NCBI RefSeq assembly: GCF_024521635.1
Contig: NW_026250422.1
Coordinates: 372,001-436,000 of the forward strand
Direction: 5' to 3'
DNA from: Tricharina praecox
Lineage: Eukaryota
Length of the DNA stretch: 64,000 bases
Shown: positions 16,101 through 52,221 of the stretch, in pieces
How positions within the stretch are numbered: the stretch's first letter is position 1
Layout: the number at the start of each line of letters is the position of its first letter
Program-made: the position numbers and the translations under genes
Notes under the pieces: model-generated
Seen by the model: only the letters and a program-made list of their open reading frames with translations
What the model was told of the DNA's origin: nothing
Database searches by the model: none

Positions 16101-16192
16101 TGATTCAGCCGGGATTTGAACCCGGGTCGGGCGCAGAATGCTAATGCAAGATGCAATGGCAAGCGCCCATGATACCCCTACACTACTGAATC
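16101..16192 (-). tRNA. tRNA with GCC (Gly) anticodon, 21-nt intron 16136-16156, atypical acceptor stem
   Basis: Cloverleaf: GATTCAG/CTGAATC, GGCGC-TTGCCA[intron]T-GCGCC, CCGGG-TTCAAAT-CCCGG, A73; T-runs downstream. Confidence 0.9.
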
Positions 16193-16545
16193 GAGTGATG
16201 TTCTTTGGTTTTATCTTTTGAACATGATGACTGTAGCTTACCTCCGCTCGTAATCCTGTGATGGAAATCATAAATATTCCGTATCCGACCTCGTGGGTGA
16301 TGGGAGTCATGGCTTCTAAGTTCTGAGGCGTAATTGTGGAACCTTCGAGAAAGAAGGATACCTACGGCACTCTCATCGTCCTCTGCTAGGTATCTCCACA
16401 TCTGCAGGCTTGCCAATACCGGTAATGAACAGTGGTTCTATATTGTATTCTGGGGCAAACCTTGTGACTCGCCTCGGTATCTAACTATCAATTTCCCACC
16501 GAAATTCAATCGGTACATCGGGAACGGGTGTCCGCCAGTCGAGCA

Positions 16546-18218
16546 TTACAGGAAAGAGAAAAAGCGCAGAGCAGTAAGACCCTCATATTTCCTTGTACAG
16601 AAAGAACCGGAGATCAAAACACCAGGTAACTGAACCCCAACGCCCACAACACGAGAATTCAGAACCGTGTCTGAAACTCTCGCACAATAGAAATATGATC
16701 TTGTACCCCAGCAGTAACTTGTAAGCAACTACTGTCCAGCGGCAGGGATGATCATAAAGTCGGGTACCTCATTCTCAATCGCAACATCGGTCTTCTTCCA
16801 AGTTCTCCTGGCCTTGGTTGGCTTCGCCGGCATCAGAACATAAGCCGAATACAGAGAATCATCCTTGAGACCATCGGCAGCAGCAACCTTCATGATACGA
16901 TCAAGGGCCACGCTGCGAGGGAAGTTCGAGGGAAGTTCAAAGGATCTTCATTGCTCTTGTGGAGGAATCTAGATAATGGTCAATTTAACATCATCACCGT
17001 TGCTGGACTGGTAATACTGACACCATAGTCCAAGTGAAAATTTTCCTGTTAGTCTTGCGTTAACCTTTTACAAGATTCCCCATTGCTCCGCTAGGTAGTG
17101 CTCCACAATAATTGATTATTCATTCTTGTCGAAGAATGTGGAAATAGTGTGAATGGTGTAGTCGTTGACTCCCAGACTGCACTCAATTTTGGTGAGGGTG
17201 AAAATTACGACAAGAAAATTGGCGGTAGTTGTTGGGGTTTGTGGCTGTGAGTCTGGAAGTAAACCGGCCGTAAAGTGTCATGTTCCGGTAGTTGAGGAAG
17301 TGCGGCGTTGCGGTTCGGGCACTTCGCGGTGATCTCCATACGGCCCGGCCAAGCATCCTCACAAACTTCCATATCTAACTAAAGCAGCTAGGTCTCTTCA
17401 AGCCGTCGGGCCTCCCCATATGTACAAGGAAGATCATGTGGGTCCTCGGCATTCTTGTATTTGGAAGGGGAGTCGGGGAACTGTTCGGGCCCATTCGATA
17501 TGGTATTCATTCTCGTCTCGAGCAAGTTTCAGAGCTGCTGACCCGAATTGACGAGGATGAGTACAATTGTCAGCTGGTCGCCCAGAGCGGGGATTGCTTG
17601 GTCGTTGAGCTGTCGATCGGCTTGGTCCATATCGCGCTTCCGTCGCCCTGAGCTGTGCGATGTTTTCCTTGATGGGATCGGGGTCGGAACAACCCACTTG
17701 ACCAACCGATGGAATGGCGGTGTCGGCGGCAAACAAGTACCGTACCAGGATGGTAGGTCAGTGGTGCTTCACCTTGCGCTCATAATTTATAAAGGTGGTG
17801 AGGCACGACTTATTGGCTGTTCCTGGTACATAAGCCACTGAATATTGGCAACTAAGAGGGTCTGTCGTAACTGGATGTTGTCGGCCCGCTCGGCGACGAC
17901 AAGATCCATCGCCGATCCCGAATCCCGAATCCACAGTCCATGCGGACAAACTACGCCTCTGTAATAGGTATCGAAGACAACAGAGGAGGTAGTCAACTTT
18001 CTCGCGAGTCGGTTTGAACTGTTCTCCGCCTTCAGAAGGAATGTACCGACCGACAGGGTAGTTGGTCTCAACGTAAATAGCTGGCGAGATCCGCCGGCGG
18101 TATTCGGCAGCGTGCTCGTCAAGCGGTTTTCGGTCGGTCATCTTCTGGATGCGAATCAAGTCCGTAAGTCCTTGCGCTTCTTCTTTATGCTCATCTCATC
18201 GAGCTTGCAGTGTTGTCA
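16546..18218 (-). pseudogene. Degenerate coding region of unknown family
   Basis: ORFs 17758..18159 and 17434..17736 share a frame split by one stop. ORFs 16729..16911 and 16546..16728 abut in one frame. A further coding-like stretch with a stop lies at ~17070-17340. Boundaries approximate. Confidence 0.45.
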
Positions 18219-19516
18219 TCCTTGTCGTCGTCTTCGGCTTATGCTCTGGATAGTTCGAGAGTGGCTGTGGCAAGGCTTAATGAGGAAAGAGTGCTGCGGG
18301 TATGTATGGCTGGCCACAGTGGGCTGGTAGGTAAGTGCGTATGTGTGGAGAGAAGGAGGGGATTATTCAGGAGGACGAACGCGGGTTTTATAGTGGAGAG
18401 GAAGGCACCGGCGATAAGAGGTTTTAAATTCATTCCAAAGTATTCCAGCATGTTCTTTCCATTGTGGCCCTGCTACTCTACGCGTCCGCAAGCACCGCGC
18501 GAGTAGGATGGAATGAACCCGCCATAGAAAGGAAGAATACCCCCGTATGGCTCCCGAATACGATACTCCCGCCGCCGAGAAGTCGATCAACTGGGTTCCC
18601 GCACCTTCCGCGCTGATCCGCCGAGAACTGTGCCAGTACCGTAAGCCAATAACGTCGAGGAACCCATAAAGGCTCCAACTTCCGCCCACTCAAAAGGCTG
18701 TTTGCTTGGAAGTTGGGAATTGCCGTCACAAACATCGGCAACTACCTATTCCTTGGAACCACCAGTTGATTGGTATGTGAGAGCATAATACAAGCCCCAA
18801 AGCTGTCTTCGATGCACAGACATGCATCATCTGCACCCTGGTTCACAAGCCACAATCCATGATCGCAGCCCGCAGCCACATGTATCTACCACCACCAGAA
18901 ACCAAAATACGAAGGTGTCAAAAACATATAGAGTGAGACATGGGGATGGATAGATAGGCGACAACACTGTTGGCTGTTCTATATATTTCTCGTCGGGCGG
19001 AAAAGCCCCTCTTTATACACATATGCTCACTCGATTCGAGCCAGAATTCTCTTGCGATCCAAGGCTTCCGATGCGCAAACGGTCCATCGGTGTTCATAGC
19101 CAGCTCCGCCGATATCATAAAAAGTATAGAACCTTCAGGATCGATAGATTTCGAGAACGCCGAGGTCTGGAATTCTTGCGAAGACGCGAGCGGAGTGCGC
19201 CAAAGACTTCTCCATTTCGACCTAGCCTGCTGGACTTTGATGTGACTTGCGTCTAGGCTTGAAGCTCCCAGACGCCGGCTGCGCTCGTGGGGCCGAGTGA
19301 TAAACCCTAACATAGAATATCACTTGCCATCGCAAACTCGGCAGCTAGTATCGCGACTGCGAAGCTCAGTTCGACCCTCAGTGCTGCCAACAATTTATCC
19401 TCTCCCTCCCTCCTCGTTCCTCCCTCCTCCTTAAGTCCTCCCGCATCTTCTTCCACCATCCACCATTCTTATCACCATCCACCAATCTTATCGCCGCAAA
19501 AACCACCACCCGCACC

Positions 19517-20071
19517 ATGTTGCCCTACAACCAACCATACAACTATCCGCAGCAGCCGCAGGCGTTGAGGCCTTTGGGCGTCAACCAGCAGCAGGAGCAG
19601 CCGTTGCTCAGCACGCTTCTCGCGGAGCTTGAAACGTCACAGGCGCAACAGAAACAGGTGAGTGCGAGCGTATTTCGGCAGGCGAGTGCACGAATCCAGC
19701 AGCTAAAGGAAGCGGCAGCAGCAGCAGCCGGCACCGGTGGCGCTCCAGCCATGGCAGCAACGGGTGAAGGAACGGGAGCAGAATAATGCGGCGCAGCAGA
19801 ATGCGTACCGGCAGAAGCAACAGTCGTTTCCCAATGCGTTCGTCCAGCAGCAGCGGTTTGGACAACAGCAGAAGCAGTATGGACAGCAGCAGCAGCTTGG
19901 ACAACAGCAGCAGACTGGACATCTTCAGCAGGTGTATCAACAGCGTATGGACCTCAAGCGCAAGCAGCCGCACCATGGTCCACAGTCGCAGGTCGGAAAG
20001 ATCCAGCAGTTCGGTCAGCAGCAGAAGCTTCAGCATCACCAGCGGCCGTATTACCAGCAGAAGATGAAGCC

Positions 20072-20125
<54 letters not shown>

Positions 20126-20922
20126 GCAGCTGAAGCGTGACGCACCACAGACATCGATAGACACCACCTACCTAGACTCCGAGGTCAACCGCCTCAACAA
20201 GCTCATCGAACTCTGCACAAAGCTGTACATGTCCACGCTGCCGCTCCTCCCGCAGCAGCGCCGGCCGCAGCACCAGGTTATGTGCAACAACCTGGCAGCC
20301 TTTGGGCGTCTGTGCATCCCCAACAAGGACGACCCCGCGCTGCCGTTGCGGCAGCAGGTGTATGCAACGCTGAAGGAGGCGGCGGTTATGGGAAAGGTTG
20401 CTGATATTATTCACATCCTTTGTAAGTAACGCTCTATCCCCCTTCCGACAGCGGGAAGGCTGACCGAGTGATGTGCAGTGGAAATCAACAGATACCGCAA
20501 CCGCCAGCGGACCGACGAGGCGATGGCTGTGCTCCGAGAGGCCGGGCACATGCTCACTATCCCCGCGATCACCTCGGTGATCACTGCGGCTGATAATCCC
20601 AATCTGAAGTGGTGAGCATCCCCCATTCCCATCTCTAAGCCGATGACTGACACCCCGTAGTCCGCAATTCGATCGCGCGACGAATTCTATGCGCTTCCAT
20701 ATCGTCTGCGGACTAGTGGAGACTTATGTCGCTGTACTCGGTATTAACGAGGCGATTTGGCGGTGGAAGCAGATGTATTTGGAGTCGATGGGGGAGGAGC
20801 AGCTGCTGATGACTTATGGCGGTTGTGTTCGTGCGGGTCCCAAGAAGGAAGAGAAGAGAGAGACGGATGGTTATGTCCAGGCCAGGGATGATGATGAGGA
20901 TGGTTATGAACCCAATCTCTAA
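19517..20922 (+). CDS. Glutamine-rich hypothetical protein, 4 exons
   Basis: Introns from 19658 (GTGAGT), 20422 (GTAAGT) and ~20612 (GTGAGC) join ORFs 19517, 19737 and 20689 in frame. Confidence 0.7.
20073..20123 (+). repeat. (CAG)17 coding poly-Gln tract
   Basis: Perfect trinucleotide run in frame. Confidence 0.95.
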
Positions 20923-21266
20923 ACTTTCACAGAAAGTGCATAACCGCCTGGCAATTGTCAGGTTTACTATGATAGCTGTAGAGTAGTGCGAGCAGCAAAT
21001 GATAGTGAGTGAATTGAGTTGATTGGTCCAACTGGAAGTCGAAGTGTATATAAAGCAGCAGCAGGGCATGTGTGCTGGAGTTCTGATCTGCGAGGCCTCC
21101 ACTATGCATATCAATCGCCATACTTCTTATCAGATCTTTGCTTACGTCTTCTTTATTCTACCCTTCAATGCACCATGGAGTCCCAGACACAGTGGCCCCG
21201 CTCTTGAGGCTGCCTTTCACGGCCCATCCACCATGGCACGCTCAGCGACCAGTCATTGTACATCGT

Positions 21267-22035
21267 TCAGGTTCTCATCTGTCCTCTATTGAACACCTCC
21301 GCGCTCGAGTCCTTGATATGGTACAGTACCTCCCTCTCCCCACCAGCACCGGCACCCGTGACCCTCAAAACCCCGCTAACGTCGTTTGCCATCCCCGTGT
21401 CCAGCATCCTCAGACTCGTCACGTTAGTCGCCTGGTGCGCAAGCGTCGTCACGAACGCAGCGTTCTCTTTCTCCAATCTGCAAGCATTCCTGGAGACGAG
21501 TGCGGAGTCGGCATTCACCAGTATCGCTGTCGCAAATACGAGCTAGCCTAATCGTCAGCAAACGCAAGGACTGGGAGAGAGGGGGGATGCGAACCTGATG
21601 CCACTCCAGTATCTCAGCCACCAACTCCATAGCCCCTACACCTCCCGCAGCAAGAAGCACATCCGGGCTCTCGAGTACGAGTATCACCCTTCCCTTTGCC
21701 TCGCCACCGATGCTCTCCACCACATCCTCAATCCTGTGACGCACCTCTTCCGCCCATCCCTTCACACCCAGCACGCCCTTCTTGGGTCGAAACAACCCCG
21801 TGAGCCCATCGACGAAGACGTAACGTGCATCCTCGCGCGGAAGCGCCTTGCGGTGGAATGTAGCGTCGTGGAGGAATGAGATGTGGACGACGGTGGTGCT
21901 GGTGGGACGTAAGAGGAGGTGAGAAATGAGGGATTGGGTGTACCAGCTTCCTGAGGCGCCGAGAATGCTGGTGATGAGGCTGAGCGAGGAGGGGCTGGTG
22001 AGTTGGGGCGTGAGGAGGTCGGCGAGGAGCGACAT
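21267..22035 (-). CDS. ELP6: Elongator complex subunit Elp6; intron 21543-21594
   Basis: LITSILGASGSW, FVDGLTGLF, LDTGMANDVSGVLRVT and EVLYHI motifs typical of fungal Elp6. Confidence 0.85.
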
Positions 22036-23803
22036 TGCGGCGGACGCGTGCGGCGTGGCGACGTGAGCGGACACTTGCGGCGTGAGCGGACACTTGAGAC
22101 GTGGGGCTAAGTTTAGTATGCTAGACTTTAGTGGTGGGGTAGATGACGCACGTGGGAACCAGCCTCAGCCTTCCCACCGCCCACGCAAGCATCCGCGCGG
22201 CTACCGGGGGCGTCTGCAAGTCGAAACTGGCGATTCGATGTTGAAATTTGCCGCGCCCATGGTTGCTAACTATAACAAGGCTACCTCGAGACATTCCAAC
22301 TATAGCATAGTAGCGTCGGAGGGCTACCTACCTTTAATGTCATAGGTCTACCGTACTCCAGTTGGTACATATCGTATTACCATTCTTACTACCAACAACT
22401 ACCGTAATCACCTGGTCCAGACTCTCGTCGACGTCCTAGAACCGGCTATTGTCACGGTTGAGGAATGCCGGCAATTGCGCGGGCGAACTTAGAACACTAG
22501 ACTCCACAGCCTTCGCCCGGTGGTCCACAGCCTTGCGGCGGTAACCACGCAAACCCCACGAACCGGACCCGAAAGCCAAGTTTAGAGTAGATGGTACATA
22601 CATTATACACCCACTCTCCGCCCACCCGGCACGCCAACACTGCGGAGGCTGACGTGATATCGGTACCCGCGGCCATGACCTAACACACGCCCGGTGTGCA
22701 TCCTGACGCAACCGGCGACAACAACGCGGGCGGCAGCAGCAGCAGCAGTTCAGATTGGAGGATTTTCTCGGTAGTGGCTGGAGCTGCCTTTTGTTTCGGG
22801 GGAAGGGGGAAACAAAATAATGAATAGTGAATAATATGCTCACACACAACTAACTACCGGTGGACCGCATCGACGATCGAAGGGGGGCGGAAACTTATTC
22901 GAACGGATAGTTACGGTCCACCGAGCTGAGCGCAGTAAGGTCGAAGGAACGACCTCAACCTCAACTTTTTTTACCTACATCACACTTGGTTACTTCCGAC
23001 TCGCCGGCGTCGGTCCGGATCCAACTTTGCAAGGCCGAAGGAAATCACTTTTAGTGGTAGGTATGGAATAAAGTTACCTACATACATCGATACCGTGTCC
23101 ACTCTTGCATGCAATGTGCATCCATCCACATGGCTGGTTTCACAAGCTGTCACTTAAATAGCATATCTCGGTACAGAGTGCTCTCACTCTCACTCTCATC
23201 CTCGATCACCTCGGCTCCAAACCGGTCATGCACGCACGTACGCACGCACAAACACGGCCGATTATTCTTCCTCTCGCTCGCTCGCTCGGTACCGTCGAAT
23301 CAATCATCATAGCCGAGCTTCCGGCTGATTCGCATCTCCCCATGATGTTGCACGAAGAAAATCCTCGCTGCAATCACCTATTGCACGGATGAGGCACAGG
23401 CAAGCAGGCTTGAGCGAGGGAGCGGTGAGCACGCGGTGAGGTAATCGGTGCATATGGAACAGATTTAAGTACATAGCTGTCCTTTGAAGTTTGAAGTCGT
23501 TCCTCCCCCCCCCCCCCCTACGTTGTGACCGGTACACATGGCGATGACCTGATACACGGGGTGCAGCCTTGTTTAGAGAGGAGACCTCTGCCTCCACTTC
23601 GAAACCGCCATGTGGCGCGGCGTGGTGAGATCCCTCCCCCACAGTCCCAGTCTCAGTCCCGACTCCCAGTGCCAGTACGTAACCACGGATGGTTTCCAGA
23701 AGCCTGAAAGAAGTGGAGTTCACACATAGCTACCGTACCTGGCCTGTATGTATGCACCCCTGATCGTGTTGGTAACCAAGTACATATCCCAACTTCCCTG
23801 GTA

Positions 23804-24779
23804 TGGTTGGGGACATCTAGTGCTGGAGTAAGTGGACATTCGGATCAGGGGAATTAAAATCCAAATGCGGTAATACATTAGCATTTATTAAGTTTATTTA
23901 ATCTTTTTTTTCCCAGGCGTCCGCAGCCAACTGGCCCCGCCGGGAACGAAAATCAAAATATTGCGGCCAGTTATTGCTCGTTTTCTTCAATAAAACACAC
24001 CTCTGAACTGCACTGTTGCGCTTGTTCCATCAGTTGGATTGTTCCACCGGTCTGTCGCCGCTGACCAGGCGGCCGCAGCTAACTCCAGAGCTCCATGGCC
24101 CCGCCGGGACCGAAAATCACAATATCTCCGCCAGTTCTTGCCCGTTTTCTTCGATAAAACACTCCTCTGGATCGCACGAGCACGCTCATTCCATCGATTC
24201 CATTCTCCACAGGTCTGTCACCATTAACCGCGCTTCTGCAGCCCACTCCACAGCTTCAGAAGTTCAGCGCTCCACAGCCCCACCGAGACCGAAAATCACA
24301 ATTTCTCGGCCAGTTCTTGTCGATTTTCCAAGGCGCAGATATACAAAGCTCATCAACAGGTTAGCGATCAACTGGAATAGTATCAAATTTGTAGGTAATT
24401 GTTTTCTATTTATGTACATAATATTCTTTGTCACAACAATTAGTGACCATATTGTGCTGCCAAGATGTCCAGATCGGGTAATCAGGCGTGCCAAGACTGC
24501 CTAATGGGGAACTCAGCCGTGCTAAGACTGGGCTGTGGCAGCCTTGCCCCTGGACATTCCCGGGGCCTCCCCATACTAAATCATTTTTCGTCTATTTATT
24601 TTGGATTTTGGTTGCCACTCAACCACAACGCTTAAAAAAATCGGGCTCTTTGAAAATTACCTCCTTCCTCTTCTCTATCGCTGTAAGAGCTCTTTTTTTA
24701 TTAATTAGGTTGTTGTTGTGAGCTAACCGAACGTCAAAAGTGGGGGTGCTTTCATTCCGGAACTAGATGTCCCCAACCA
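23804..24779. mobile_element. Non-autonomous TIR DNA element with TA target duplication (Tc1/mariner-type)
   Basis: TA|TGGTTGGGGACATCTAGT...ACTAGATGTCCCCAACCA|TA; 18-bp perfect TIR extending imperfectly; three internal direct repeats at ~23940, 24105 and 24285. Confidence 0.85.
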
Positions 24780-27700
24780 TAGTTACATGCTAGTTACATG
24801 CTACATCCCGCCCCAGCAGCAGCACCAGCAGCAGCCTGCAGCTACCTACATACAGATGCAGCATGCAGGAACAACCCATTTCTTTCTAGAAGGATTTTCC
24901 GATGTTATGACGGAAGTTTGGTTGGTTACAGAACTACACTGCGCTGCATGTTCCACTTACTTGGTACTTGCGTGCGTGTGTGGGGCACGATACAATGATA
25001 CAATACGAAACGAAACGCCCCATATCATACCGTCGGTACCGCGGCAGAATACCTATCCCACGGCGGAATTCGGGGCTGGACGGAAACAACCCCCATCATC
25101 CATCCATCAATCAAACATTTGATCTTGCTGATGTTTGTCGTGTCGTCTCGTGTCATACCTACTTTGCGAATTAGCCGTCCTTGAAGACACGTGTATGAGC
25201 CGACTGATACCGGTAGCTACAAGCACCATGCCTACTCTAGAGTCTAGGTACTCTAGGTAAAATATGAGGACCGAGAATAATATGCAACAAAAAAAATAGT
25301 CGGCTGTCACGGCCAGAACCAAGGGATCGGGATTTTTGTTTCGTTTCGTTTCTCTCCCCCCACCCCGGGGCCCACCGCTGTTTCAGAAGACGGGTTTCTC
25401 AGCTGATGTGGGTTGTGGGTTGTGGGTTGTTATGAGGAAAGCCATGGGTATGGAAGGACGTGGGGGTATCCATGCCCCACAATGGGAAGATGCGAAGAGA
25501 GAGAGGACGGCGACGGCGGCGGCAGAAAACAGGGCTGGGGGGCTGGCTACATAGCAGGCTGATCTGGCTGATCTGGTAGGCTGATCTGAGTGATCAGAGT
25601 GAGTGCGCGGATGTGATCACGATAGTTAGCACCACCGCGTGCTCTCCTGTGGCGCATACGTAGGAAACAAAGGTTCTCCACGGCCGGCTGGAGCCTGGCA
25701 GCGTAACACAAGCCCGGCCGTGGTCACTGGTGTTTATCTAGATAGCCGTTAGGACTCGCACTGCGCACAACGCCAGCGCTAGTCCGGCAGATAGATTCCG
25801 TGGATATGGAGTCGCCTCGTTATTGCAGTGTCGTCGCGGTGGTTACACCCGTTGGTGGTGGTGGTGGTGGTGGTGGTGGTGGTGAATATTGATGTTGATG
25901 TTTTGAGTGAGGTTAGGGACTATCCGCTATCATACTACCAGTGAGTGTATGTAATCTATAGTACTCTGGAGCACATCAATCCGCCGCAACTCACAATATC
26001 CAAAACAATCAGGGCTGACAAGCTGACAACGAGTATGCACTGTATTTACACTGCATACATACTCTGGGATGTGAAACCTGAACCTGAACCTCAACCTGAA
26101 CCTGAACCCCAACCTCAACCCGGCCCACCAGATCGCCACGGCACGGCATCGCATGCAGGCTGCAGCTTGGAAAAACCTCCAACCGTAGAACACTGCATGC
26201 ATCGACAGCTGGTGCAGCACCCTCCGACCTCCGCCCTCCGCCCGCCCGGCCGCTCGCCCTGTTTGCTGCCCCAGCCCCAGCCCGTAAGCAACCCGTAACC
26301 TTGCACGGCACGGCCCGGACGGCTGTCCCTATGGAGTGAGACATGACCAGACAAGACCTGACCCATCGACTCGTGTACTCGGCACCGTACGTACCATACG
26401 TACGTGCCGTGCCGGGCCAGCCGTGCGGTGGATCACCAACTACACTGAACTACACTACTACACGACAAGGCTACACTGTTGGCAGCGAAAAGCGCCTCGA
26501 TCGCGAGCGGCTACTCTACCCAGGTCAGTTGGTTGGTTGGTCGGTTACTTGGTTATCAATGCGAACCCGAACCCGGAGCCTGAATTGTTTACTCGTTCGT
26601 CTACGTATGCTGATTCGCCCGGAAGCAAATTTGTTTCCCTCCTTCATCCGGCATCCATCCATCGATAGGTGTCGGACCGGACAGTCCGTATACATCATAT
26701 ACTAGGTGGGTAGCCCGCGGCCAGTGTTTCAATATAGTACAGATTGCGTGGTTCCGTCCACCTACCTACAATACCTACAGTACCAATGTGTAGGCAAGAA
26801 AAAAAAACGGCCGTCGATGAAACGCCGAACCTTGTTCCTGAATATAGGGCAGCCTTACATACCCTACTCCATGTTATAATGTACAGTACGAGCATCATCG
26901 CCGATGCGCTCCACCAGACATGCATGCTAGTATTGTAGGTAGGGCTTGACGACGCAACTACGGTATCGTATAGGTAGAGTACTCTAGGTAGTACGTCATA
27001 ACTACCCTCGATGCACTCATTTCTCATTCCGCACCCGCCGCTGCCACGGCTCCACTCTCACGGAATTCATCTCCCCTCGGGTTCGCTGGCATGGCATCAA
27101 TATAATATCCCCCCCGGTCCCCTATAATCACGTGACGAGACGGGTCCCTGATTTCCCGCAACCCAACCGTCACGCCTGCCCCATCCACCCTGCCCATTAC
27201 GTGATCAGCTAACTAGTTATCACTGACCTCTTCATCTTCATCTTCACCATCTTCGTCCACTTCCAGACTTCCAGTCATCTCCTTCGATCGGCTAGGTAGG
27301 TAGGTAGATAACCACTGCTAACTAGCATCATCAATCAAATCTACCAATCAATCCAATCAAATCAATCACCCCCCCCCCCCACGCGAGATAGTTAGGTAGA
27401 GTACCGATCGACCCAGTCGCTCGCTCGCCCTCGCCCTCGTCCTCGCCCCTAACTTATCCGGGAAGACTACCGGTACCTAGGGCCGACAGCGTCGCTACCG
27501 AGATGAGCGAGCGAGCGTCGCCCAGCTGAGCTGAACTGTGCTGGGCTGGGCTGGGCTTCTCCCGGAGTCCGGATAATAGGGAGAACGAATCTTGTGTGTG
27601 TAGGATTCGGTGGCCGGGGGGGGGGGGGGGGCTCATGACGTGGACCGTGGAGGGGAAGGGGGGTGGGCACTGCGGGACTCTCTGCCCTGGATGTCGATGT

Positions 27701-39899: not shown

Positions 39900-39918
39900 G
39901 CTAAAATTGTTTTTTTTT

Positions 39919-40850: not shown

Positions 40851-40912
40851 AACGGTGGTTACTGCTAAAACTGTTTTTTCTACATAATGATACAACTGCT
40901 GCGGCTGGTGTT
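40851..40912 (-). pseudogene. CaaX-family relic F: tail NTSRSSCIIM* plus half of the hairpin
   Basis: Last 10 codons and stop (40880-40912) followed by one hairpin arm, joined to the upstream region of copy E. Confidence 0.75.
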
Positions 40913-42267
40913 AAACGTAACTAGCCATCGCATCACCCCCTCCCCCTGTCCTTTTCCGCTTCACGGTCAATGCATCCTTGCCCCACCCACCCAAATCTGA
41001 CGGCAAACATCACTGGCGGTGGCAGAGTTCACACACGATCACTCGCACTCGTCGGCCCCCGGTGGAATCCCTAACAATAAGTTGGGTTGGACAGTGGCGT
41101 GGAAACGGGGGGACGCACGGGTAGATTATATTGCCATAATCTAGATAGGTAGCACACAATCAATAAATAAACAAAAAAAGAACAAGTATTGTATTGTTAA
41201 GAGTTCAAAAGCCTCGAGAGAATACAGAAAAAAGAGGTGGTAGGCGGCCAGTGCTTCCCGCCGTGACCGCGTAAGCGACTAAGCAACGAGTGAGATATTA
41301 CAACACCCTCTCCGACGATCGATACGGGACCTACTCCGGAGCCCGGCTCTCCACCCCGACCTCGCCCCGACCGGACCTCGACCTCAACCACGACCAGGCT
41401 TACCCCGGAGTCCGAACTTCGACCTCCTCCGGACCTCGACTTCGACTTCGACTTCGACCTCGCCCGAGACCTACCCCGGAGTCCGGGCCCCGCCAAACAC
41501 CGACCCAGACTGGACCGGGCCCCGATCGACCCCGGCCCGACCGCGCCCGGACCGAGCCCCGCACGCACCGGACCGACTCTGACCGGACTGGATCGCGCCC
41601 GGACCGGCAAACACCGACTCGCCGAGCGAGCGAGCAAACGACTGCTCATGGACCGACAGTCGGGATACGAGTTTACGTGGCCGGATTCGGAGATTGCCCT
41701 CCTGTGCTCACCCGCTTGCCAGCGATGCCGGATGGCTACCGTTTCAACTTCACTTCAGCTTCACGGCGGTAAACAAACAAACACACGCACATACACACAT
41801 ACACACATACACGCACAGCCGAATACGAGTCGGCGAGTTTCGCGGGCAAGCACATCAGACATCAGACATTCCATCACTATCACCATCACATTTTCATCCG
41901 CATCCACATCATTCCTATACATAACCTACACACAGTATACATACAAACAAAACGTAACGTAACAGCCATCATAAAGGATCCTCAAAAAGGGTAGGTAGAA
42001 AAAACATTAGATATTTGCATGCATCATTAACAGTCAACAGTTTACCATGCCGTAACAGTAGGTCAAGTTCAAGCTTGTCAAGTTGAATGTCGCTAAACAA
42101 ATAAACAAATAAAAAGAGTAAAAAAGGTAAAAAGGTAAAAGAAAAGAACAAGCCCCCCGCCACACCCCCCCCCCTCCTCCCCAAACCCCTGGGGTTTTTT
42201 TTAGTCATGCAAGCATACATAATCCATTTCCATTTCCATTTCCATCTATTGCTCCTACTACGGAAGA

Positions 42268-43996
42268 TTACAATTCCCCATGGGGAACCGGGGTAATCAA
42301 TCCCGCAGCCGGCTCCTGTACCGAGCCACCTGGCGCACCAGCTGCGCCTGCAGCGCCAAAGAGGGACTTTAGGAGCTCTCCCCACGCGACGTCGAATCGT
42401 GCGCCCATCAGCCATGCCGCCAAGAACTATTAGGTCGAAGCGTTAGAAACATGAGGTAGTAGGCAGGAATAGAAGAGGATGCGTGCGAACTAACCATCAG
42501 GCCCGAGATGCAGAACAGTGTTGTGACGACCGCGGCCGTGAGCAACATGATCTCCTTCCGCGCTAATGCCTGCTCTTCCGGTGACTCTCCCGGCTGCGGG
42601 GGCTCGGCCACCTTCTGCGGGAAGACATGCTCGATCCATTGTTCCACCTGTAGACGGCGGATTAGTACGATACACGCGGCAGTGAGGGGTGAACACATAA
42701 CGAACCTTTGCGCAAGCGACGCTGATCTTGAGGAAGTTGGGATCCTTGGGGGTATTCTTCTCTTTGATTACCCGCAGGTACTTCCTGAAAATGGCGCACA
42801 CACTTCTAAGATTGCCGACCTCGAGCATAAGCTGGCACGCCTCTCCCTTCGTGATCTTGACGTTCTTCTGGAAGACGTTCTTGTTGCGGAAGACGAGCGC
42901 CAGCGTCGCGATGGCCATGACCTGCGGGATAGCCGCAAAGTTGAATACGCTTCGCTCCTTGATACCGGCAAGGTAGAAGAGACAGTCGTCGGCGTGTCTT
43001 AGGGCGTCGAGGACCATCTCGCTGATGCAGTTGAGCGCCGCCTCCTCGTTCTCGACCTTCGCAAAGTCCGAGAACTTGTCCAGATGCTTCGACCAGATCT
43101 CCTTGGGCCAGAACGCGCGCCCGTCGTTGAGATCCTCGCGGTAGTCGCGGATGATGTTGGTCTTCTGCAGGAACAGGCCCATTGAGTTGGAGAGGTCGCC
43201 CTTCTCCAGCAGCACCGGGTTCGCCTTGTCCGACGACACGAACAGCCGCGTCAAACCCTCGCCCACGAGTCCCGCGACGTAGTGGCAGTACAGGTCGTAA
43301 TCGGCAATCGTCTTGACGCCGTTGACATTGTGCTCCTCGTCGCCGGCATAGTCTGCCATTCCATTGCCCATCTTCTTCGTGATATCCCTGATGATGTCCT
43401 TGTGGACGTCTGGGATCTTTGCGAACTCGGCGATGACGACATTGAACTCTACGAGGAGGGGGCGATCCTTCTCGTTGGGGCCGTTGCCATTGAAGGTCCA
43501 GCCCTCCTGGTCAAGCACCTTATCGAAGTCGCGTAGCAGCGGCTCCTTGACCGCGAACGGAATCGTCATGTCGTCCTCGATGGTGTCGAGCCCCCGCAGG
43601 ATCAGGTAGAACAGCGACACTGACACGCACAGCTCCGGACACAACTCTTGGATCACCGCGCTGAACGACCGGGACGTCATGTCCAGGAAATCGAAGCAGC
43701 GACGCAGCTCGGGGGTCTCGTTCGCCGGATTCCGCTCGTGAAGTGGGTTGTGCCATACTTTCCTGGTCACAGCGAAACAGGCGCGTTAGCAGGCGCTCAA
43801 CTCACACGTTCGGGAGGGGGGATGTGAGGGGGTAGTCTTTGTTTCGTTTGTTTGAGTTTGGGAAACGACGTGTCGTTGCACCGTCGCCACTGGGTTTGGA
43901 AAAGGGGGATGGGAAGGAACAGGAGTGGTACCATTGTATGATCGACCTCAATTGACTCGGGTGGAAGGTGTAGTAGACGAGATCGGTGGCCTTCAT
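42268..43996 (-). CDS. ERG9: Squalene synthase; introns 43763-43931, 42648-42705, 42427-42494
   Basis: [37 protein letters not shown] and FAAIPQVMA motifs; C-terminal TM segment; ends HGEL. Confidence 0.97.
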
Positions 43997-44827
43997 GATT
44001 GCGGAGGAGGATGTTGTTGGTGGTTGGAGATCTCGGGAGAAGGAGAGGGTTGGGTGCGTATAAGAAGAGGTTGTCGAGGATGTGAGGACGGAAAGTTGAA
44101 GAAGCGTATGTAGCTCATTTCTTTGCTTCGTAAAGGAGCGACGCGAATCAGGTAAGGCGGCAGCGCTAGATAGCCCCCACGGCTCGGACTATTCCCAGTA
44201 AGCTGTGGAGTACTTGGTTACTGTACTTAGGCAAATTGTAGACCTTGCGAGATGTATGTAACCAAGTACCTAGCAGTGAGAGCTGGACACCGTGGAAACA
44301 AAGTGGGTAGTTACGGTATTTGTTTACTTGGTTATCGCACGGCGAGGTAATGAAGCCAAAGTGTGAAGAAGCCTTCAGATTTCGGCGGAGAACTGGGCTT
44401 TGATTACTACAGAAGGGATGGAGAGGCGTCTCCGGAGTAGGTTAAGAGCATCTTGCTGAGATGGAGGCTATGTACTCCAGGTAATACCCGGATTCCATGC
44501 AGCTCAGTGGGAAAGCCAAAGCATCACGCCCACCGGTACACCGGTACATAGGCGCCATGCACACCACCATGGAATCTCTACATCTACCCGGATCCCCCAC
44601 AAATTCAAAAAGAGTGTGAGTACTTGCTATGTAGATAACCAAGTACTTGGGTGGGTATCGGTACGAGGGAATCAACCCCATAGGACAGCCAGTACAAAAG
44701 CCAAGCGAGTTGACAGGTGACTACACAAAAAACACAGTGGTATCAAATATTATACAGTCGGCAAAAACAATACCCGCTAACATGAATCATCACAAGACAG
44801 ACAAGTAGTCATCCGAAATAATCGGCC

Positions 44828-46158
44828 CTATGCAGCTGTCGGCCAACCCTCAATCTGAAACTCGACCACAATGTCTTGATCCTTCGCATCGAGCGGCCGT
44901 GCCTCACGGTTGTACAGCGTTCTCTCGACATATTTAAGCCGGCCACTGTTGTCGACCAAGATCACCGTCTGCTGTGCGGTTCCATAAAGCCGTGGGGATT
45001 TCCTCCATTTCGTGAGGTCCTCCTCGCTCATCGATGGAACCAGTGGCGTCACCGGCGATTCACAGCAGAGATGGTCCAACCGCGTGGACCCAGCACCCGT
45101 GTCGACGACCGTGCTTCGGAGATTTTCCGGCCGGCCGGAAGCGATATCTTCGGGGTGGGGTGGTAGCTGTTCTTCCGGTATATCCGGGGTCTGTGCTCGG
45201 TGTCCGTGGGGAGTGGTGGCATGTTCCGCTGCGGCGTCGAAAGGTGGGATGAAAATCGAGAGCTCGAGGGCATTCATCTCGATTTCGTACGTGTCGTCAT
45301 TGCTGATCAGCGGTAAGGTGTTGTGGCTCAGAACGGCGAAGCATCTCTTGAGGAACTCATCCTCCGACACGCCCCCCTCCTCCTCCACCGACACCTGTAT
45401 CGTTTCCTCGAGTAGCTGCTCCCCGAGCTTCACCTTCTGCCATGGGCTGTCGAACAGAGAATTGCTCAGGCCTCTGGTCTCACCCTTCTTCTCGCCGATC
45501 CAATGGGCCGTGGACTCGACTCCGTCGTCACGGTAAGGTGTCCGATTGGAGATGATGGCCAGCCCTTCCAGGTTCTCGCCCTTCGGTCTCAGCAAGCCGC
45601 ACATCATCGAGAATCCACCGACGCCCTTCATCTCGCCGGTGTCGAGAACCTTCCGGAGCCAGACACTCGTTGGGGTATCGACGGGATCCGGCGAGGCCAA
45701 GAACGACGTGATCATTGCCCCCCGCGACTTCTCGCCAATCGCCAGTGCCGACGATGCTTCACGGTAGTTGGTCAAGATCGCCAGACGGCCCTCCTTGGAG
45801 ACTCCTAGCCAGGTGCCTATGTTGAGAACAATCAACGGTCAGTGCTTCGCTCCTCCGGAGAAGTGTACGGCGAGTTCAATCGGGGGGAGGGGGGCTCACC
45901 TTTCTCGGGTCTGGCAAGGTCTCGTCCGGAGAATAGGTTCTCGTGTGGAGGATCCCAGAACGCGGCGCGCAGAGTTGGCCGGTGCAGGAACTCCTACATT
46001 ACAGGTTCGCGTCAGCAACTCGAACAACGAGGCTCATGCAAGCTGCGTGGCCATTATCCCCCGAGAAAAGGCAGGGAAGAAGAAGAACTTACATCTCTGT
46101 TGGAGAGGAGGATGAGAGGATAGTCGGGATGAGCGGTAGAGACTAGAAATATACACAT
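44828..46158 (-). CDS. NRDE/TANGO2 family protein; introns 45994-46092 and 45817-45899
   Basis: Spliced N-terminus MCIFLVSTAHPDYPLILLSNRDEFLHRPT; GTWLG, LTNYRE, SRG, GLSNS and YGT motifs. Confidence 0.92.
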
Positions 46159-48366
46159 TGCGTTTGTTGATAGTTGGCGCTTTTGATGGGAGATCGGTAG
46201 GGTGTATGGGTAGGTAGGTGGCAGGTAGGCGTGACGGAGTGTAGGTATAGGTATAGGCAGTTAGTAGGATGCGCGGGATCAATCAGCATCTCAGGCTCCA
46301 ATTGCACTTAAATACTTCCCCTCTATGGAATGCAGCAAGCAGCAGCTGCGGCCAACGCACCGCCAGCCCCAAGCTCGGGTCATAGACCTGGCTTCATCGG
46401 CAGCTGCTGCTGGGAGAGGGAGCAGCAAGCCACTGACTCGAGTATCGGCGGTATTCGCCGCTCCTGTTTCTACCACCGGAACACCCGATGCCGTATGTGT
46501 AGGCAAGAAAGTGGTACGTTGTGAATGTTTCCGTTCCTTCGTATGCTCTCCCCGCCACCGAGAGCGGCGCATCGGCCATCCATGGCTGACGGGTGGGGTG
46601 AGGTGGTTTAAGGCTCGAAGATCCATGATCGACGCCTCTCTTGCTGCGGTAACCAACCTCGGTTCGCTAGCAGTTGCCAAATTTCAAAAAGGAAACAAGC
46701 GGGGAAAAAGAAAATTGTAATAGCCCCACGGACCAAAGACACGTCCCACGACATGCGCAATATCCCATGGGTGGGCACGGGTCAGGACAGGGACCGCGAT
46801 CTATTTGGTTTCTTCTCCGGAATCGGGCCGGCAGATCTTGAAGAACTCTGTTTATCGAGATGGCCCGTGCCTGTGTTTCTGCCAGCTGTCTAGCTACCGG
46901 TAGATATGTACATATTTGCTGTCGACCGTTGGGATGTTTTTGGATGGCCGAGGCCAGTTCCCCATTACGATTATCAAGAGGAACCATTATGGCTGAGGAT
47001 GTGCCTGTCACTACTGGTTTCAGAAACGGGGGTAGGTGGGGGCGTGACCGTGGGGAGAGGCATATGTATGTCGGGTATGTAGGAAGAGGAGGTGTCGTTC
47101 GAGATGCAGCGGCGAGGGGAAGAAAAGATTGCGGCTTCAGGCTGTCTCCGAAACGATCTTGGCCTGGACCCATGACAGCCATCGATCGGAAACGGGGTTC
47201 ACGACGCTGCCTTCCTCCTGTCTGCAGAACGATTGCATCGTGGTCTTGGTCGTGGTGGTCGTGGTGGTCGTGGTCATGGTCGTCCTCGAGCTCGAGCCCA
47301 AGCCCAAGCTCCTGCTCGGACGAGTGCTTAGGAGAACGGCTTTACACGGTTTGGCCGCGTGTGCCGGCGATTATCCACCGGGCGGGGCACCACCCACCGC
47401 AGCAGCAGAATGGAGTCTGATGCGTCCATGGCCAACCATCCAGGGGCCAACCAGTGAAGCCCAGGACGCAAGCGGGGCAAACAACAGCAGCAACGACAAC
47501 AGCATTAACAACAACGCAACGGCGGTGGCGGCTGTCGACGTCTGTGCCAGTGCCATGTGGGTCACTTGAGAAGGAGTGGGGCTTATTTGGCCCACGTCAC
47601 GGGTGCTCACTGCTGCCGTACGAGTAAGCGTGAAGTATGTCGGTTGTGGGTGAGGAAGTATCCACAGCAACTAAGGGCCTCGATGGTCCTCTGAAGTCAT
47701 CAGTCGATGCTGGCCCGTCGTTACGACCGACCGACCATCCCGCTTTCTAGAGTAGACGTGCATCATGCAAGTGAGCGTAGATTTGTAGCGTGCCCCTCCG
47801 CAGAAACGATGGAAAAGAAAAGAAAAAATGTAACGAAGCACAAACTCACAATCGAGAGCTTGAGCCCCTCCCACCACCCCGCTCAACGTTGGCAGGGACA
47901 CGCACATTATACATCTAGAGCTTGAGCGGGAATAGGTAGTCCTTGCGTGAGAGACTTTCCTCCTCCTCCTCTTCTTGTCCTTATTTCCTCTTCCTTTGCT
48001 TCCTCTCCTCCTCACCTCCTCTCCTTCCTTTCTTCATCTCCCCTTTCCATCTCAATCCATCATCAGTAGCTATCCTTCGCGGGAACTCCTACCATACACT
48101 CTACCCTACACCTGACAGCCGGACAGAGACAACCTTCTAGATCTCACTCCCCCCCCAGTCACCTGCGCCACTACCCCCCCACCCCGCCTTAAAACCATAA
48201 GCTCCACCGCAACAAAGCTCCCAGCTCTACCTCAGTAGCTCCTTCCTTCCGCCTTATCAGCCACCTCGCCCCCTCGTAGCATCATACCGAACTCCCCTCA
48301 GTAATCGGACTCGCCGAATCACTCCACTCTCCATCAAAATCCCATCACTCCATCATCGTCATCACC

Positions 48367-49500
48367 ATGTTCGATCTGTTCGCTAAGCTCCTCTGGTAAG
48401 CCCATTCTCAGTCGTCGTGGAGCGCGCACACACGCGGTTTGCTCTTTTCCGGAGCTTCAGCGTCGGTGACCGAGAGAGAAATTCTAACACTGCCCGTCTA
48501 CACAGTTCCGTCGCGACCTTTGCATTCCCCATCTTTGCGTCCTACAAAGCCCTCAAAGCGAACGACCCGGCCCAGCTGACGCCATGGCTGATGTACTGGG
48601 TGGTGCTCGCCTGCGTTCTCTGCGTTGAGTCGTGGGTAGGCTGGGCCATCTCTTGGTTCGTCCTCTCTCTCTCTCTCCCCTCTTCCCTGAACTCACCGTA
48701 TCTCGCGTTTCCACAGGTTTCCCTTCTACCAAGACGTCCGCGCCTGCTTCATGCTTTGGCTCGTCCTGCCGCAGACCCAGGGCGCGACTAAGCTCTACTT
48801 CGAATACGTGCACCCGACCCTGACCAAGCACGAAGGCGATATCGAAGAGTTCATCTCGCGCGTGCACGACCAAGCGAAGGCCGTCGGCGCCGAATACATC
48901 CAGCGGATGATCGAAGTCGCGAAGCAGGTCATCTTCGGTGGGCTCCCCCACGCCGAGGCGATGGACCAGCGCCCATCCACCCCGATGCCGCACGACGCGG
49001 CCGGCTACGCTCAGGCCCTCTTCTCCCGCTGGCGCGTGCCGCCCCTTACCCCCTACGCCCCGCAGATGGCCACGGACTTCTACGCGTTCCTCTCTACTGC
49101 GCTGCAGCAGGCGCCCGGTACCTCGGGCCCCGGCGGCAGACCGGGCAATGGCAATTTGATCCCGCCGCATGTCAAGGGCACCGCTGAGAAGGCGCGGTTC
49201 ATCGAGCTGCAGAGGCAGCGCCTCAAGACGGTGATGGCCGCGCTGGAGAGCGAGATGGATACCCTGCAGGCCTCGCAGACGAGTGCCGCCGGAGGCGTTG
49301 ACACTGCTGCTGCCAGTGCTGACGGTGGCTTGCACAAGAGCTACAGCATGGGACATCTTTCCGCCTACGAGGGAGACTTCGATCATGTCGACAGGGAGGA
49401 CGCCGCGGTCCCGCCTATCAATCCCGCTGGCGGTTGGTTGTTTGGTTGGGGCACGAAGCCTCAAGATCAGGAGCAACAGGAGAAGGCGCACTCCGAGTAG
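48367..49500 (+). CDS. HVA22/TB2-DP1 (REEP-like) membrane-shaping protein; introns 48396-48505 and 48656-48716
   Basis: FPIFASYKALK, WLMYWVV, WFPFY and LWLVLPQTQGA motifs. Confidence 0.92.
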
Positions 49501-51066
49501 AGCTTCGGAAGTGATGCCTCGTCTGAGGAGCGTGATGGGGTCGCAGTCGGGGTTGGGATTTCATGATAACAGTGGCAGTGCTAGTGAACTTTGTTTTTTG
49601 TTTGTTTTCATTATTCTTTCTTAGACAGGCGAAGGGAGGGTATTCGGACTGGCAGGAACGCTAAAAGAAGGTATTGAGACAGATGATGCTCCTCCCTCCC
49701 GCATGCATGCATTGCGAGGCTGAGCGAGCGTTGTTTCGCGCTCCTTTCTTAATGTTTCCGATCAGTTGTCGTTTTTACTTTCCGTTCCTTTCTGTCAAGT
49801 CCGGTTTACTTCAGTGGGGGAGATGGGTGGTTTCACTCAGCGTTGTAGGTAGTTGAATGAGCGGTCATTTGAGGATTTGAGGATTAAAAATTGGAGGCGA
49901 TATATATCTCGTGGCTCGTGTTCGTAAGAACCGTAAGAACCCGTGTGCTGTGTGCAAACTAGTGTGCAGAGAACTCACTCGTGAGTCGTGAGGGGCATGT
50001 GTAATGCAGGGCCCCAACCCCCTGCCTGGATGTTGATACCTGCTGTAGGAGGCATGTATGTAGGGGGAATGAAATGAGGGGCATCAAAGGAGGGGCAAGT
50101 TGCGAGTTGAGGATGCTGACCAATGACGTCGGCGTCGACGGAGAGGGACGGGGTTGCAGTTGCGGTTAAGATCTCGTGTTACCGCGTGAGCTGGAGCCGG
50201 GGGGAAGGGAGGGGGGTGATGGGGGGCGAGGGGGTGGGGAGTGGGTGGGGAGTGGGGCACGTGTAGCGGGGGTTGTAGGCGGATCGCGGATGGAGAGGAG
50301 CAGGTGAGGAGCGGGTGTTTCACTGCGGATCCGAGGAGCGAACGGGGAGGAAAGGAGGGGGGGCGGCGAGTGACGAGCGTGAAGTGTGGTCATGGATCTC
50401 ACTCGGCGGACACCACCCACCCGCCGGAAACTCTCTGCTAACTTGCTAAGTACTTGGACCCCCGCCAAAGACAAAGACAAAGACCGCCCCCGGTGGGCAA
50501 GTACGTACTTACCGGTACTTGTTGCCCGAAAACCCCCATCATCGAACCGCCGCCGTCCCACCTCCACCCCCGGATGTACGCTGGTAGTCAGTTAGCGAGC
50601 CATGGCGGCAGCGGCGATTAATAGCGCCTGCAGGCTGCTCGCACCGCTCACGAGTCACGACATCCGCAGCCCGTAGGCCGTGGCTAGGGAACTAGTGGTT
50701 TTCGCTCTCGGTGAGAGAGGCCCCACGCTCCGGAGGCAGCTGCAAGTCCCGGTAGTGGCTACGGGGTCGGTGCTCCGGGTCCGATCCATCATCCCGCCAA
50801 AGAAGCCGTGGATCGGACTCTTCCCGCGGGGGACCACGGTGTGGGAATACTCGGAGCCCGAGGTGTCTTACATAGTCCCCCGACCCGGCCGGGGAGGACG
50901 GGGCCAACGACTTTCACCAACCTTCGGCCTACCGGTATAGACAACCGTTCCGATTTTCGGTATTCGGGCCCGTGACTCTCCCCTCCCGCACATCTCCCTT
51001 TTCCTCCTCCCCACAACCCTCAAAAAAAAAGAAGCAACAATGCCAACAACAAAACAAAAAATTGAA

Positions 51067-51158
51067 TGATTCAGCCGGGATTTGAACCCGGGTCGGGCGC
51101 AGAATGCTCATGCTAGATGCAATGGCAAGCGCCCATGATACCCCTACACTACTGAGTC
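51067..51158 (-). tRNA. tRNA with GCC (Gly) anticodon, 21-nt intron, atypical acceptor stem
   Basis: Same cloverleaf as 16101-16192; acceptor GACTCAG/CTGAATC. Confidence 0.9.
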
Positions 51159-51230
51159 GATTGATGAAATATGATTCCCCGCGGCGCCTATGTTAGACTA
51201 GATTACACTCGGAGCAGAGGTGTCTTGACC

Positions 51231-51808
51231 CAGTGCCTCCGATAATCCAGTCTAGTCCAGTTCGTTTTTCATCAAAAGTCAGATTGGACTGGGCAATCTG
51301 CGCAACCGGTATCATAGGGCTGGACGGACTGCAGTCGACTGAATGGACTGGTACCTACTTTGAATGGAAAATGTTCGAAATCAGTAATGAACTTTTTGTA
51401 CACGTCTATACCTAGTTCAGCCATTGCAGATCCTTCTCGCACTGTGCGTTGAGCATAACTAGTCTCCATCTTTTCGATATCGCCATTTGTAGCAGCTGCA
51501 AGACCATCGGGTTGCTGTTGTATGTAAGTGACTTTGATGCCGAAGTTGATACCTAGGCGCACTCGAAGGAAGGATACCGGAACAGGAGGGTTGTCTGGCT
51601 CTGCAACGTGGGTGGAGGGATGTGTTGAAACCATAGTGAAGTAAGGTAAGAAAGTTCAGAGAGTGGCAGTCTGTCAGTCGACTGTAATCCGAGGTAGCAA
51701 AATTTTGGGACGGATCGTTCTCCAATTTTATGGACTACATAGACTACCTAGACTAATGCAGTCCGTCCAGTCCGGAGGGCAGTCTGGACTGCGCTATCAG
51801 GAGCACTG
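51231..51808. mobile_element. Degenerate TIR element (CAGTG ends, GGACTG/CAGTCC subterminal repeats)
   Basis: CAGTGCCTCCGATA versus TATCAGGAGCACTG; internal 14-bp inverted pair CTGGACGGACTGCA/TGCAGTCCGTCCAG; no TSD seen. Confidence 0.55.
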
Positions 51809-52129
51809 CCCACGACCGCTGGGCACCATTAGGGAGGTTCTGTAGATGAAGTGCGCACTTGAGCTGCACTTCAGCCCGTTCTGAATGAGGATTAGTGGGT
51901 GCAGCGTGAAAGGGAGGTTTTGCTGACTGCCATGATCTTGCACCCGGGTTAGTCATGTCGCGCAACACCATCACCAAGATTGTTCGACTCGACCTTGCCC
52001 CGCCGCCGATGCCGTGTCGCTCAACCCCATCACCATGGAACCGAGTTACACCTCCACGAAAAAGAAGCAACAATGAGATCAGAGCTAACAAGGAGAACGG
52101 CAAAAGAAAAGGCAAAACAAAATGACAAG

Positions 52130-52221
52130 TGATTCAGCCGGGATTTGAACCCGGGTCGGGCGCAGAATGCTAATGCTAAATGCAATGGCAAGCGCCCATG
52201 ATACCCCTACACTACTGAGTC
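52130..52221 (-). tRNA. tRNA with GCC (Gly) anticodon, 21-nt intron, atypical acceptor stem
   Basis: Mature sequence identical to 51067-51158; intron differs. Confidence 0.9.

Follow-up and report, generated by a model that had tools for sequence, protein, structure and literature searches.

The window analysed here, a 64,000-nt stretch of Tricharina praecox DNA, contains three tRNA genes with a glycine anticodon (GCC) whose acceptor stems lack the glycine identity set's second as well as its third pair. The odd acceptor end (G1:C72, A2:U71 and, in the fully paired copy, U3:A70) is, judging by the sequences found in related fungi, a fixed sequence of a tRNA family and not a private oddity of this genome. 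As the same RNA forms a conserved, multi-copy family in these relatives, it is most likely the ordinary glycine tRNA of the lineage. We thus consider it probable that the window genes encode the standard, glycylated tRNA-Gly(GCC), and that the glycyl-tRNA synthetase (GlyRS) either tolerates the new stem or has co-evolved with it. This proposal draws on direct observation of the anatomy of the genes, of their conservation and copy number in relatives, and of the demand for glycine codons.

Gene anatomy and the glycine identity set

The three loci are tRNA genes with a glycine anticodon. A first-pass annotation had placed three tRNA genes here without naming a strand, and both ARAGORN and Rfam recover them at the same positions, all on the minus strand (Table 1). 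With introns allowed, ARAGORN assigns tRNA-Gly(gcc) to all three, with a 21-nt intron after position 37, denoted i(37,21); without the intron mode, it reports three tRNAs with an unassigned 4-base anticodon and a boundary of copy 3 at 52129/52130. The Rfam tRNA model RF00005, whose gathering score is 29 bits, matches each gene over model positions 1–71, with 49.5 bits for copy 1 (E-value 1.1e-9) and 44.7 bits each for copies 2 and 3 (E-value 6.6e-8). When the whole window was scanned with the default speed filters of Rfam, copy 3 was the sole tRNA gene reported.

Each gene encodes a mature RNA of 71 nt (without CCA) and a 21-nt intron located between positions 37 and 38; the intron boundary of copy 1 has a 1-nt ambiguity, with a T on either side. 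The acceptor strands of copy 1 (GATTCAG and CTGAATC) are fully paired and include A2:U71 and U3:A70, followed by A73. Copies 2 and 3 combine the same 3′ strand with GACTCAG, such that A2:U71 and A73 are retained and position 3 forms a C3xA70 mismatch. The remainder of copy 1 consists of U8, A9, a D arm (G10:U25, U11:A24, G12:C23 and a mispaired U13/U22), G26, an anticodon stem GGCGC/GCGCC enclosing the loop TTGCCA-[21-nt intron]-T, a 4-nt variable loop (CGAC) and the T arm CCGGG-TTCAAAT-CCCGG. The universal tertiary positions are all intact (U8, A14, G18, G19, A21, G15:C48, U33, G53:C61, U54, U55, C56 and A58). Thus, the sequence parse bears out what the first-pass annotation had described, namely A2:U71 in all three genes and C3xA70 in two of them, and, together with ARAGORN, the TTGCCAT loop, the 4-nt variable loop, A73 and the GCC anticodon. 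One correction is needed, as pair 3:70, whether U:A or CxA, likewise departs from its glycine determinant, G3:C70.

The parse also reproduces the reported distribution of changes among the copies. Position 3 is the sole difference between the three mature RNAs, compared to two differences for each pair of introns, and the three variable sites within the 21 nt of intron are each private to one copy (Fisher p = 0.036 for variable sites in exon versus intron).

In the section of a review of tRNA identity that treats eukaryotic glycine, the determinants are given as A/U73, G1-C72, C2-G71, G3-C70, (G10:Y25):G45, C35 and C36, and the consensus of tRNAs-Gly retains C35, C36, (G10-Y25):G45 and, within the acceptor arm, only G1-C72 (PMC9976931). 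All of the consensus elements are present in the window. C35 and C36 are part of the GCC anticodon in all three genes, the base triple is formed by G10, U25 and G45, and A73, the discriminator base of eukaryotes, and G1:C72 are found in the window genes as well as in all 54 metagenome loci described below. The two other acceptor pairs are absent: C2:G71 is replaced by A2:U71 in 3/3 window genes and 54/54 metagenome loci, and G3:C70 by U3:A70 in copy 1 and 54/54 metagenome loci and by C3xA70 in copies 2 and 3. The initial description of C2:G71 as a near-invariant element was overstated, given that the consensus in the same section keeps only G1-C72 in the acceptor arm (PMC9976931). Even so, a cytoplasmic tRNA-Gly that has lost 2:71 as well as 3:70 deviates genuinely from the one eukaryotic identity set that has been tested.

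The canonical tRNA-Gly(GCC) of the eukaryotic cytoplasm, exemplified by yeast and human, shares with the window RNA the GCC anticodon with C35 and C36, A37, A73, G1:C72, the (G10:Y25):G45 triple, the 4-nt variable loop and the length of 71 nt without CCA (determinants as in the glycine section of PMC9976931). It differs from the window RNA in the latter's A2:U71 and U3:A70 (or C3xA70) pairs and in the intron at 37/38. Introns are not known from the Gly(GCC) genes of yeast and human. An origin of the gene body from a UCC-type tRNA-Gly was also considered, based on a D arm that we take to resemble that of yeast tRNA-Gly(UCC).

Text searches of the literature, which exclude supplements and databases such as GtRNAdb, in which genes of this type could already be recorded, found no paper describing a cytoplasmic tRNA-Gly with A2:U71; among papers on GlyRS and tRNAGly in fungi, A2-U71 occurred in the general identity review alone. 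Likewise, nothing on tRNA-Gly acceptor stems was found among the papers listed for pezizomycete tRNA genes, and the 24-nt 5′ end of the tRNA, searched as a text string, matched no paper.

Conservation, splicing signals and codon demand

Metagenome contigs were scanned with a 29-nt core extending from U8 to A37 (D arm to anticodon), which leaves both acceptor strands free. The scan identified 54 loci in five metagenome samples, many of them on contigs of 50–500 kb. The acceptor GATTCAG...CTGAATC followed by A73 is present in all 54. Across the 42 exon positions left free by the pattern, 50 of the 54 loci are identical to copy 1 and the other four differ at one T-loop base. These four (L026, L028, L039 and L047, representing two distinct genes) have G for A at T-loop position 57 (TTCGAAT), the sole exon difference in the entire set. 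By their flanks, the loci reduce to 38 distinct ones, with 27 distinct introns of 9–18 nt. Each sample contains 8–13 distinct genes, the number expected of a major isoacceptor, and the pattern of sharing between samples indicates at least two genome groups. The same 29-nt core has no match in prokaryote genome contigs, as expected for a fungal gene.

The introns and flanks of the metagenome loci have diverged from those of the window beyond alignment. Exons that remain frozen while introns and flanks diverge indicate purifying selection on the mature RNA; this had been suggested on the basis of the window copies, and the 38 distinct loci now support it. The first-pass annotation had also conceded that A2:U71 might prove to be the usual form in this lineage, normally glycylated. 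The comparison with related fungi agrees with the first half of this proviso, as A2:U71 is the fixed, multi-copy form at 54/54 loci.

The introns are informative as to how the RNA is likely to be processed. In 24 of 30 introns (27 metagenomic and three from the window), a GCA complementary to U33-G34-C35 is located 3–4 nt before the 3′ splice site, and RNAfold pairs the intron GCA with exactly these three nucleotides in all three window pre-tRNAs. In these models, the helix corresponds to the canonical pairing between anticodon and intron in eukaryotic pre-tRNAs, which speaks for splicing of the genes and for GCC as their anticodon. In 3/3 genes, a single nucleotide separates the anticodon from the intron on its 3′ side (37/38), the arrangement of eukaryotic nuclear intron-containing tRNA genes. 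Additionally, CCA directly precedes the intron site, as it does in 448 of 466 tRNA-Gly genes in the counts given in one part of a published compilation (PMC2630981). Among the contigs matched to the window, none has the 21-nt intron removed, and the tRNA-bearing contigs all keep an intron; such contigs cannot show RNA level, ends or absence and say nothing on expression.

The 21-nt introns of the window resemble three tandem units of ~7 nt containing GCAT. The introns of the relatives, at 9–18 nt, have a single GCA. Internal duplication is the probable origin of the long intron.

RNA polymerase III (Pol III) terminates at T-runs, and runs of T4–T6 are located 5–11 nt downstream of all three window genes. 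Most metagenome loci also have T-runs no more than 12 nt downstream. The flanks of the window copies had been described as not obviously related, which does not hold: similarity reaches ~20–35 nt into the 3′ trailer and ~9 nt upstream, and copies 2 and 3 have a further 25-nt stretch in common downstream. These common stretches identify the three genes as local duplicates with a short duplication unit.

Local duplicates that share a short 3′ trailer, with a repeat-rich stretch between copies 2 and 3, could suggest that the genes are unexpressed tRNA-derived repeats, either related to short interspersed elements (SINEs) or pseudogenes. However, no shared SINE body was seen in the window copies, whose similarity stops ~35 nt past the gene, and in blastn comparisons with the metagenome loci only the tRNA and the T-rich trailer align. 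Exons are also kept across the 38 distinct loci, the otherwise unrelated introns preserve the GCA that pairs with the anticodon, and the T-run terminators are intact. We therefore regard an origin of this kind as extremely unlikely.

A minor feature was observed at the other end of the genes. In 28 of the 54 metagenome loci, a C stands directly before the mature 5′ end, and 21 of the loci have TC as the final dinucleotide of the leader; the corresponding dinucleotides of the window copies are TC, TC and CC. As read from these sequences, there appears to be a mild conserved 5′-leader preference upstream of the tRNA genes.

The demand for a GCC tRNA was assessed from the coding regions of the window. 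Six open reading frames (ORFs) supported by Pfam contain 79 GGC, 24 GGT, 37 GGA and 39 GGG codons. In an alignment of the squalene synthase encoded in the window with 12 homologues, 8 of the 12 invariant glycine columns are GGC or GGT in the window. By the eukaryotic wobble rules, GGY is read by a tRNA with G34. The use of GGC and GGT at invariant glycine positions indicates that GGY means glycine in this organism and, thus, that the GCC tRNA must carry glycine. The same protein places the organism. Squalene synthase is 84% identical to that of Wilcoxina mikolae, 80% to Geopyxis carbonaria, 77% to Pyronema domesticum and 72% to Tuber melanosporum, so that its best named relatives are Pezizales (Pezizomycetes, Ascomycota); one metagenome protein is 91% identical.

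Proposed charging of the variant acceptor stem

Our interpretation is as follows. The three intron-containing genes would be functional tRNA-Gly(GCC) genes in the nucleus of a Pezizales-like ascomycete, transcribed by Pol III, that arose as local duplicates. The pre-tRNA would be spliced at 37/38, helped by the pairing of the intron GCA with U33-G34-C35. The mature tRNA would then be glycylated by the dimeric (α2) eukaryotic GlyRS, which may recognize it through the determinants that were kept, C35, C36, A73, G1:C72 and the (G10:U25):G45 triple. Reading of 2:71 and 3:70 would be relaxed, or re-tuned by co-evolution of the enzyme, and the GAUUCAG-type tRNA would serve as the standard GGC/GGU decoder of the lineage. 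Four explanations had been offered in the first-pass annotation. Of these, only altered or relaxed GlyRS specificity fits these results. By itself, A2:U71 lends no support to mistranslation, editing or a non-ribosomal role, and 8–13 genes per sample, together with the frequency of GGC/GGT codons at conserved glycines, argue against all three.

The best precedent for glycylation of the window tRNA, by analogy, may be the mitochondrial tRNA-Gly of yeast. According to the portion of the GRS1 literature in PMC3990555, one yeast GlyRS, the dual-targeted α2 enzyme GRS1, charges both the cytoplasmic and the mitochondrial tRNA-Gly, although their first three acceptor pairs are completely different. 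The mitochondrial tRNA resembles the window RNA in having A73 and an acceptor end unlike the cytoplasmic set. It differs in being organelle-encoded, single-copy and without an intron, compared to the many-copy, nuclear Pol III genes studied here.

Several points weigh against this interpretation. In yeast, the second and third acceptor pairs do matter for glycylation, as noted in the glycine section of the identity review (PMC9976931), and a conserved arginine of α2 GlyRS recognizes C2-G71, according to the part of a GlyRS study dealing with the acceptor stem (PMC10164559); tolerance by GlyRS is thus not automatic. The C3xA70 mismatch costs 3.9 kcal/mol of RNAfold minimum free energy (-28.1 compared to -32.0), without evident compensation. 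In 8 of the 54 metagenome loci, ARAGORN sets the short intron at another position; its calls are Gly for 46, Ser(gct) for seven and Thr(agt) for one, and GCC is read in 54/54 only under the canonical 37/38 rule, which yields GCC throughout as the 5′ exon is identical across the 54 loci. Finally, the scan reaches only genes with the 29-nt core and would miss a canonical Gly(GCC) gene with another body. With regard to the enzyme, a bolder version is that the acceptor "operational code" for cytoplasmic glycine was rewritten, with both determinant pairs replaced and the GlyRS residue that reads C2:G71 re-tuned to match. Taken alone, such co-evolution of GlyRS is, in our estimate, somewhat less likely than not.

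The blindness of the scan to canonical genes with another body is in keeping with a different arrangement, in which the window genes encode a specialised glycylated isoacceptor beside a canonical bulk tRNA-Gly(GCC), for example as donor for a tRNA-dependent transferase or as a regulated pool. Sequence-divergent, non-proteinogenic tRNA-Gly species are reportedly known from Staphylococcus. In Ascomycota, ErgS diverts Gly-tRNA-Gly to the synthesis of ergosteryl-glycine, as summarized in the opening part of its description (PMC8913301). Nevertheless, 8–13 distinct genes per sample are many for a side role, the universal tertiary and T-loop positions required for translation are all intact, and GGC and GGT constitute the majority of glycine codons. 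The Pfam scan of 11 window ORFs, which included no search aimed at ErgS, revealed no ErgS-type gene. We consider such a division of labor improbable.

The missing C2:G71 and G3:C70 pairs also raise the question of whether another amino acid is attached, leading to ambiguous decoding of GGC/GGU codons. Alanine, through alanyl-tRNA synthetase (AlaRS), is the obvious candidate, as A73 is common to tRNA-Ala, two window copies have a 3:70 CxA mispair beside it, and the C3 form occurs at three or more loci of the window organism. A C-A mispair at 3-70 of E. coli tRNA-Ala is also reported to be functional. The window RNA lacks the G2:C71 and G4:C69 of tRNA-Ala, and its anticodon arm and body are of the glycine type. 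In the alanine section of the identity review, E. coli tRNA-Ala mutants with the 3-70 mispairs C-C, C-U and G-A keep substantial activity, whereas eukaryotic AlaRS reportedly loses activity when G3.U70 is changed (PMC9976931). Moreover, the glycine determinants C35, C36, A73 and G1:C72 are all present in the window RNA, and heavy mistranslation would be costly, given GGC or GGT at 8/12 invariant glycine columns of squalene synthase. Misacylation is thus very unlikely in our estimate, and we give equally little credence to a restricted form of it, in which the C3xA70 RNA would be a dual-identity tRNA, partly alanylated and causing a low level of glycine-to-alanine ambiguity at GGC/GGU.

A further comparison concerns editing. 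The mitochondrial tRNA-Asp of marsupials, in which GCC is edited to GUC, resembles the window RNA in presenting a GCC anticodon on a body of questioned identity, and G10:U25 likewise figures among the Asp determinants of yeast in Table 1 of the identity review (PMC9976931). However, tRNA-Asp has G73, compared to A73 in the window, and the window genes are nuclear and multi-copy and carry the glycine consensus elements.

Copies 2 and 3 require separate consideration, as the C3 form was found in none of the 54 metagenome loci and the mismatch takes 4.8 bits off the Rfam score (from 49.5 to 44.7), in addition to its cost in folding energy. These observations could be taken to mean that both copies are decaying or poorly functional duplicates, and that only the fully paired type of copy 1 works well. 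Against decay, both exons are otherwise unaltered, in contrast to the introns, each of which bears a change of its own, and the terminators are intact. Additionally, C3 is present at a further locus. The contig of run X2 aligns to copy 3 with no other letters, except for 11 intron letters that are left out, and its flank is then unlike the window; the contig of run X3 has the same non-window flank. The C3 form thus occurs at a minimum of three of the four loci known for the window organism, unlike what random decay of a single copy would predict. On balance, we find decay unlikely, although less so than any change of amino acid. The C3xA70 copies most likely still function as glycine tRNAs, if perhaps more weakly, and the variant may have spread in this organism by duplication or gene conversion. 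Repair of the mismatch by C-to-U or A-to-I editing was considered, and the contigs show the genomic letters at C3xA70.

The fourth tRNA-Gly(GCC) locus lies outside the window, in the same or a near-identical organism, and combines the C3 form with a 10-nt intron and a different upstream flank. Its intron can be aligned to a portion of the 21-nt intron with no mismatch. The locus is contained within contigs of 1.8 and 3.5 kb from runs X2 and X3, which cover mostly coding regions.

Eukaryotic glycine identity has been mapped only in yeast; for higher eukaryotes, the glycine section of the review cited above states that tRNA-Gly has no known identity elements (PMC9976931). A fungal, multi-copy cytoplasmic tRNA-Gly(GCC) without both of the acceptor pairs that are important in yeast is a natural experiment, which bears on the co-evolution of α2 GlyRS with its tRNA and on the share of glycine identity that resides in the anticodon and A73. 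In practice, annotation of Pezizales genomes with isotype models may flag these genes as atypical, though they are probably the main GGY decoders. The case is most probably one of normal biology for the lineage; it would be considerably more interesting if a canonical copy co-exists or if the C3xA70 form is mischarged.

Other features of the window

The window has a G+C content of 54%, and its ORFs include members of the ankyrin, MYND, GMC oxidoreductase, TANGO2, PPR and squalene synthase families of Pfam. Coordinates of the tRNA genes, their parts, the downstream T-runs and the squalene synthase ORF are given in Table 1.

Table 1. Positions of the tRNA-Gly(GCC) genes and associated features in the window.
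Feature	Position	Strand	Basis or remark
tRNA-Gly(GCC) copy 1	16101..16192	-	ARAGORN with introns, Rfam 49.5 bits, sequence parse
Copy 1, 5′ exon	16192-16157	-	
Copy 1, intron	16156-16136	-	21 nt
Copy 1, 3′ exon	16135-16101	-	
Two T4 runs, TTTTCTTTT on gene strand	16081..16089	-	11 nt downstream of copy 1; resembles a Pol III terminator, putative function
tRNA-Gly(GCC) copy 2	51067..51158	-	ARAGORN with introns, Rfam 44.7 bits, sequence parse
Copy 2, 5′ exon	51158-51123	-	
Copy 2, intron	51122-51102	-	
Copy 2, 3′ exon	51101-51067	-	
T6 run	51056..51061	-	5 nt downstream of copy 2; resembles a Pol III terminator, putative function
tRNA-Gly(GCC) copy 3	52130..52221	-	ARAGORN with introns, Rfam 44.7 bits, sequence parse
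Copy 3, 5′ exon	52221-52186	-	
Copy 3, intron	52185-52165	-	
Copy 3, 3′ exon	52164-52130	-	
T4 run	52119..52122	-	7 nt downstream of copy 3; resembles a Pol III terminator, putative function
Squalene synthase ORF	42490-43770	-	Pfam and homologue search

Between copies 2 and 3, two imperfect 24-nt inverted repeats (51317-51340 and 51750-51773) are 83% complementary and 409 nt apart. In the bins around them (within 51230-51805), the summed contig depth of run X1 greatly exceeds that of the single-copy neighbours, and many loose ends and joints are found. The stretch 51230-51805 has the appearance of a small, repeated insertion upstream of a tRNA gene, similar to miniature inverted-repeat transposable elements (MITEs).

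At the beginning of the window, two plus-strand ORFs (75-1142 and 1163-2230) adjoin one another and encode 355 amino acids each. Pfam has no match for the first, and a MYND zinc finger forms the end of the second; the two are possibly tandem paralogues.

A 64-nt CT-rich stretch at 48652-48715 is replaced by three letters in contigs of runs X2, X3 and X5. On the plus strand it has GT near its start and AG at its end, and the long ORF in this region (48553-49491) is on the minus strand. The stretch may be a spliceosomal intron that belongs to a gene on the plus strand. Coverage by runs X2 and X3 includes flanking coding regions and not intergenic DNA, and our guess is that both are RNA.

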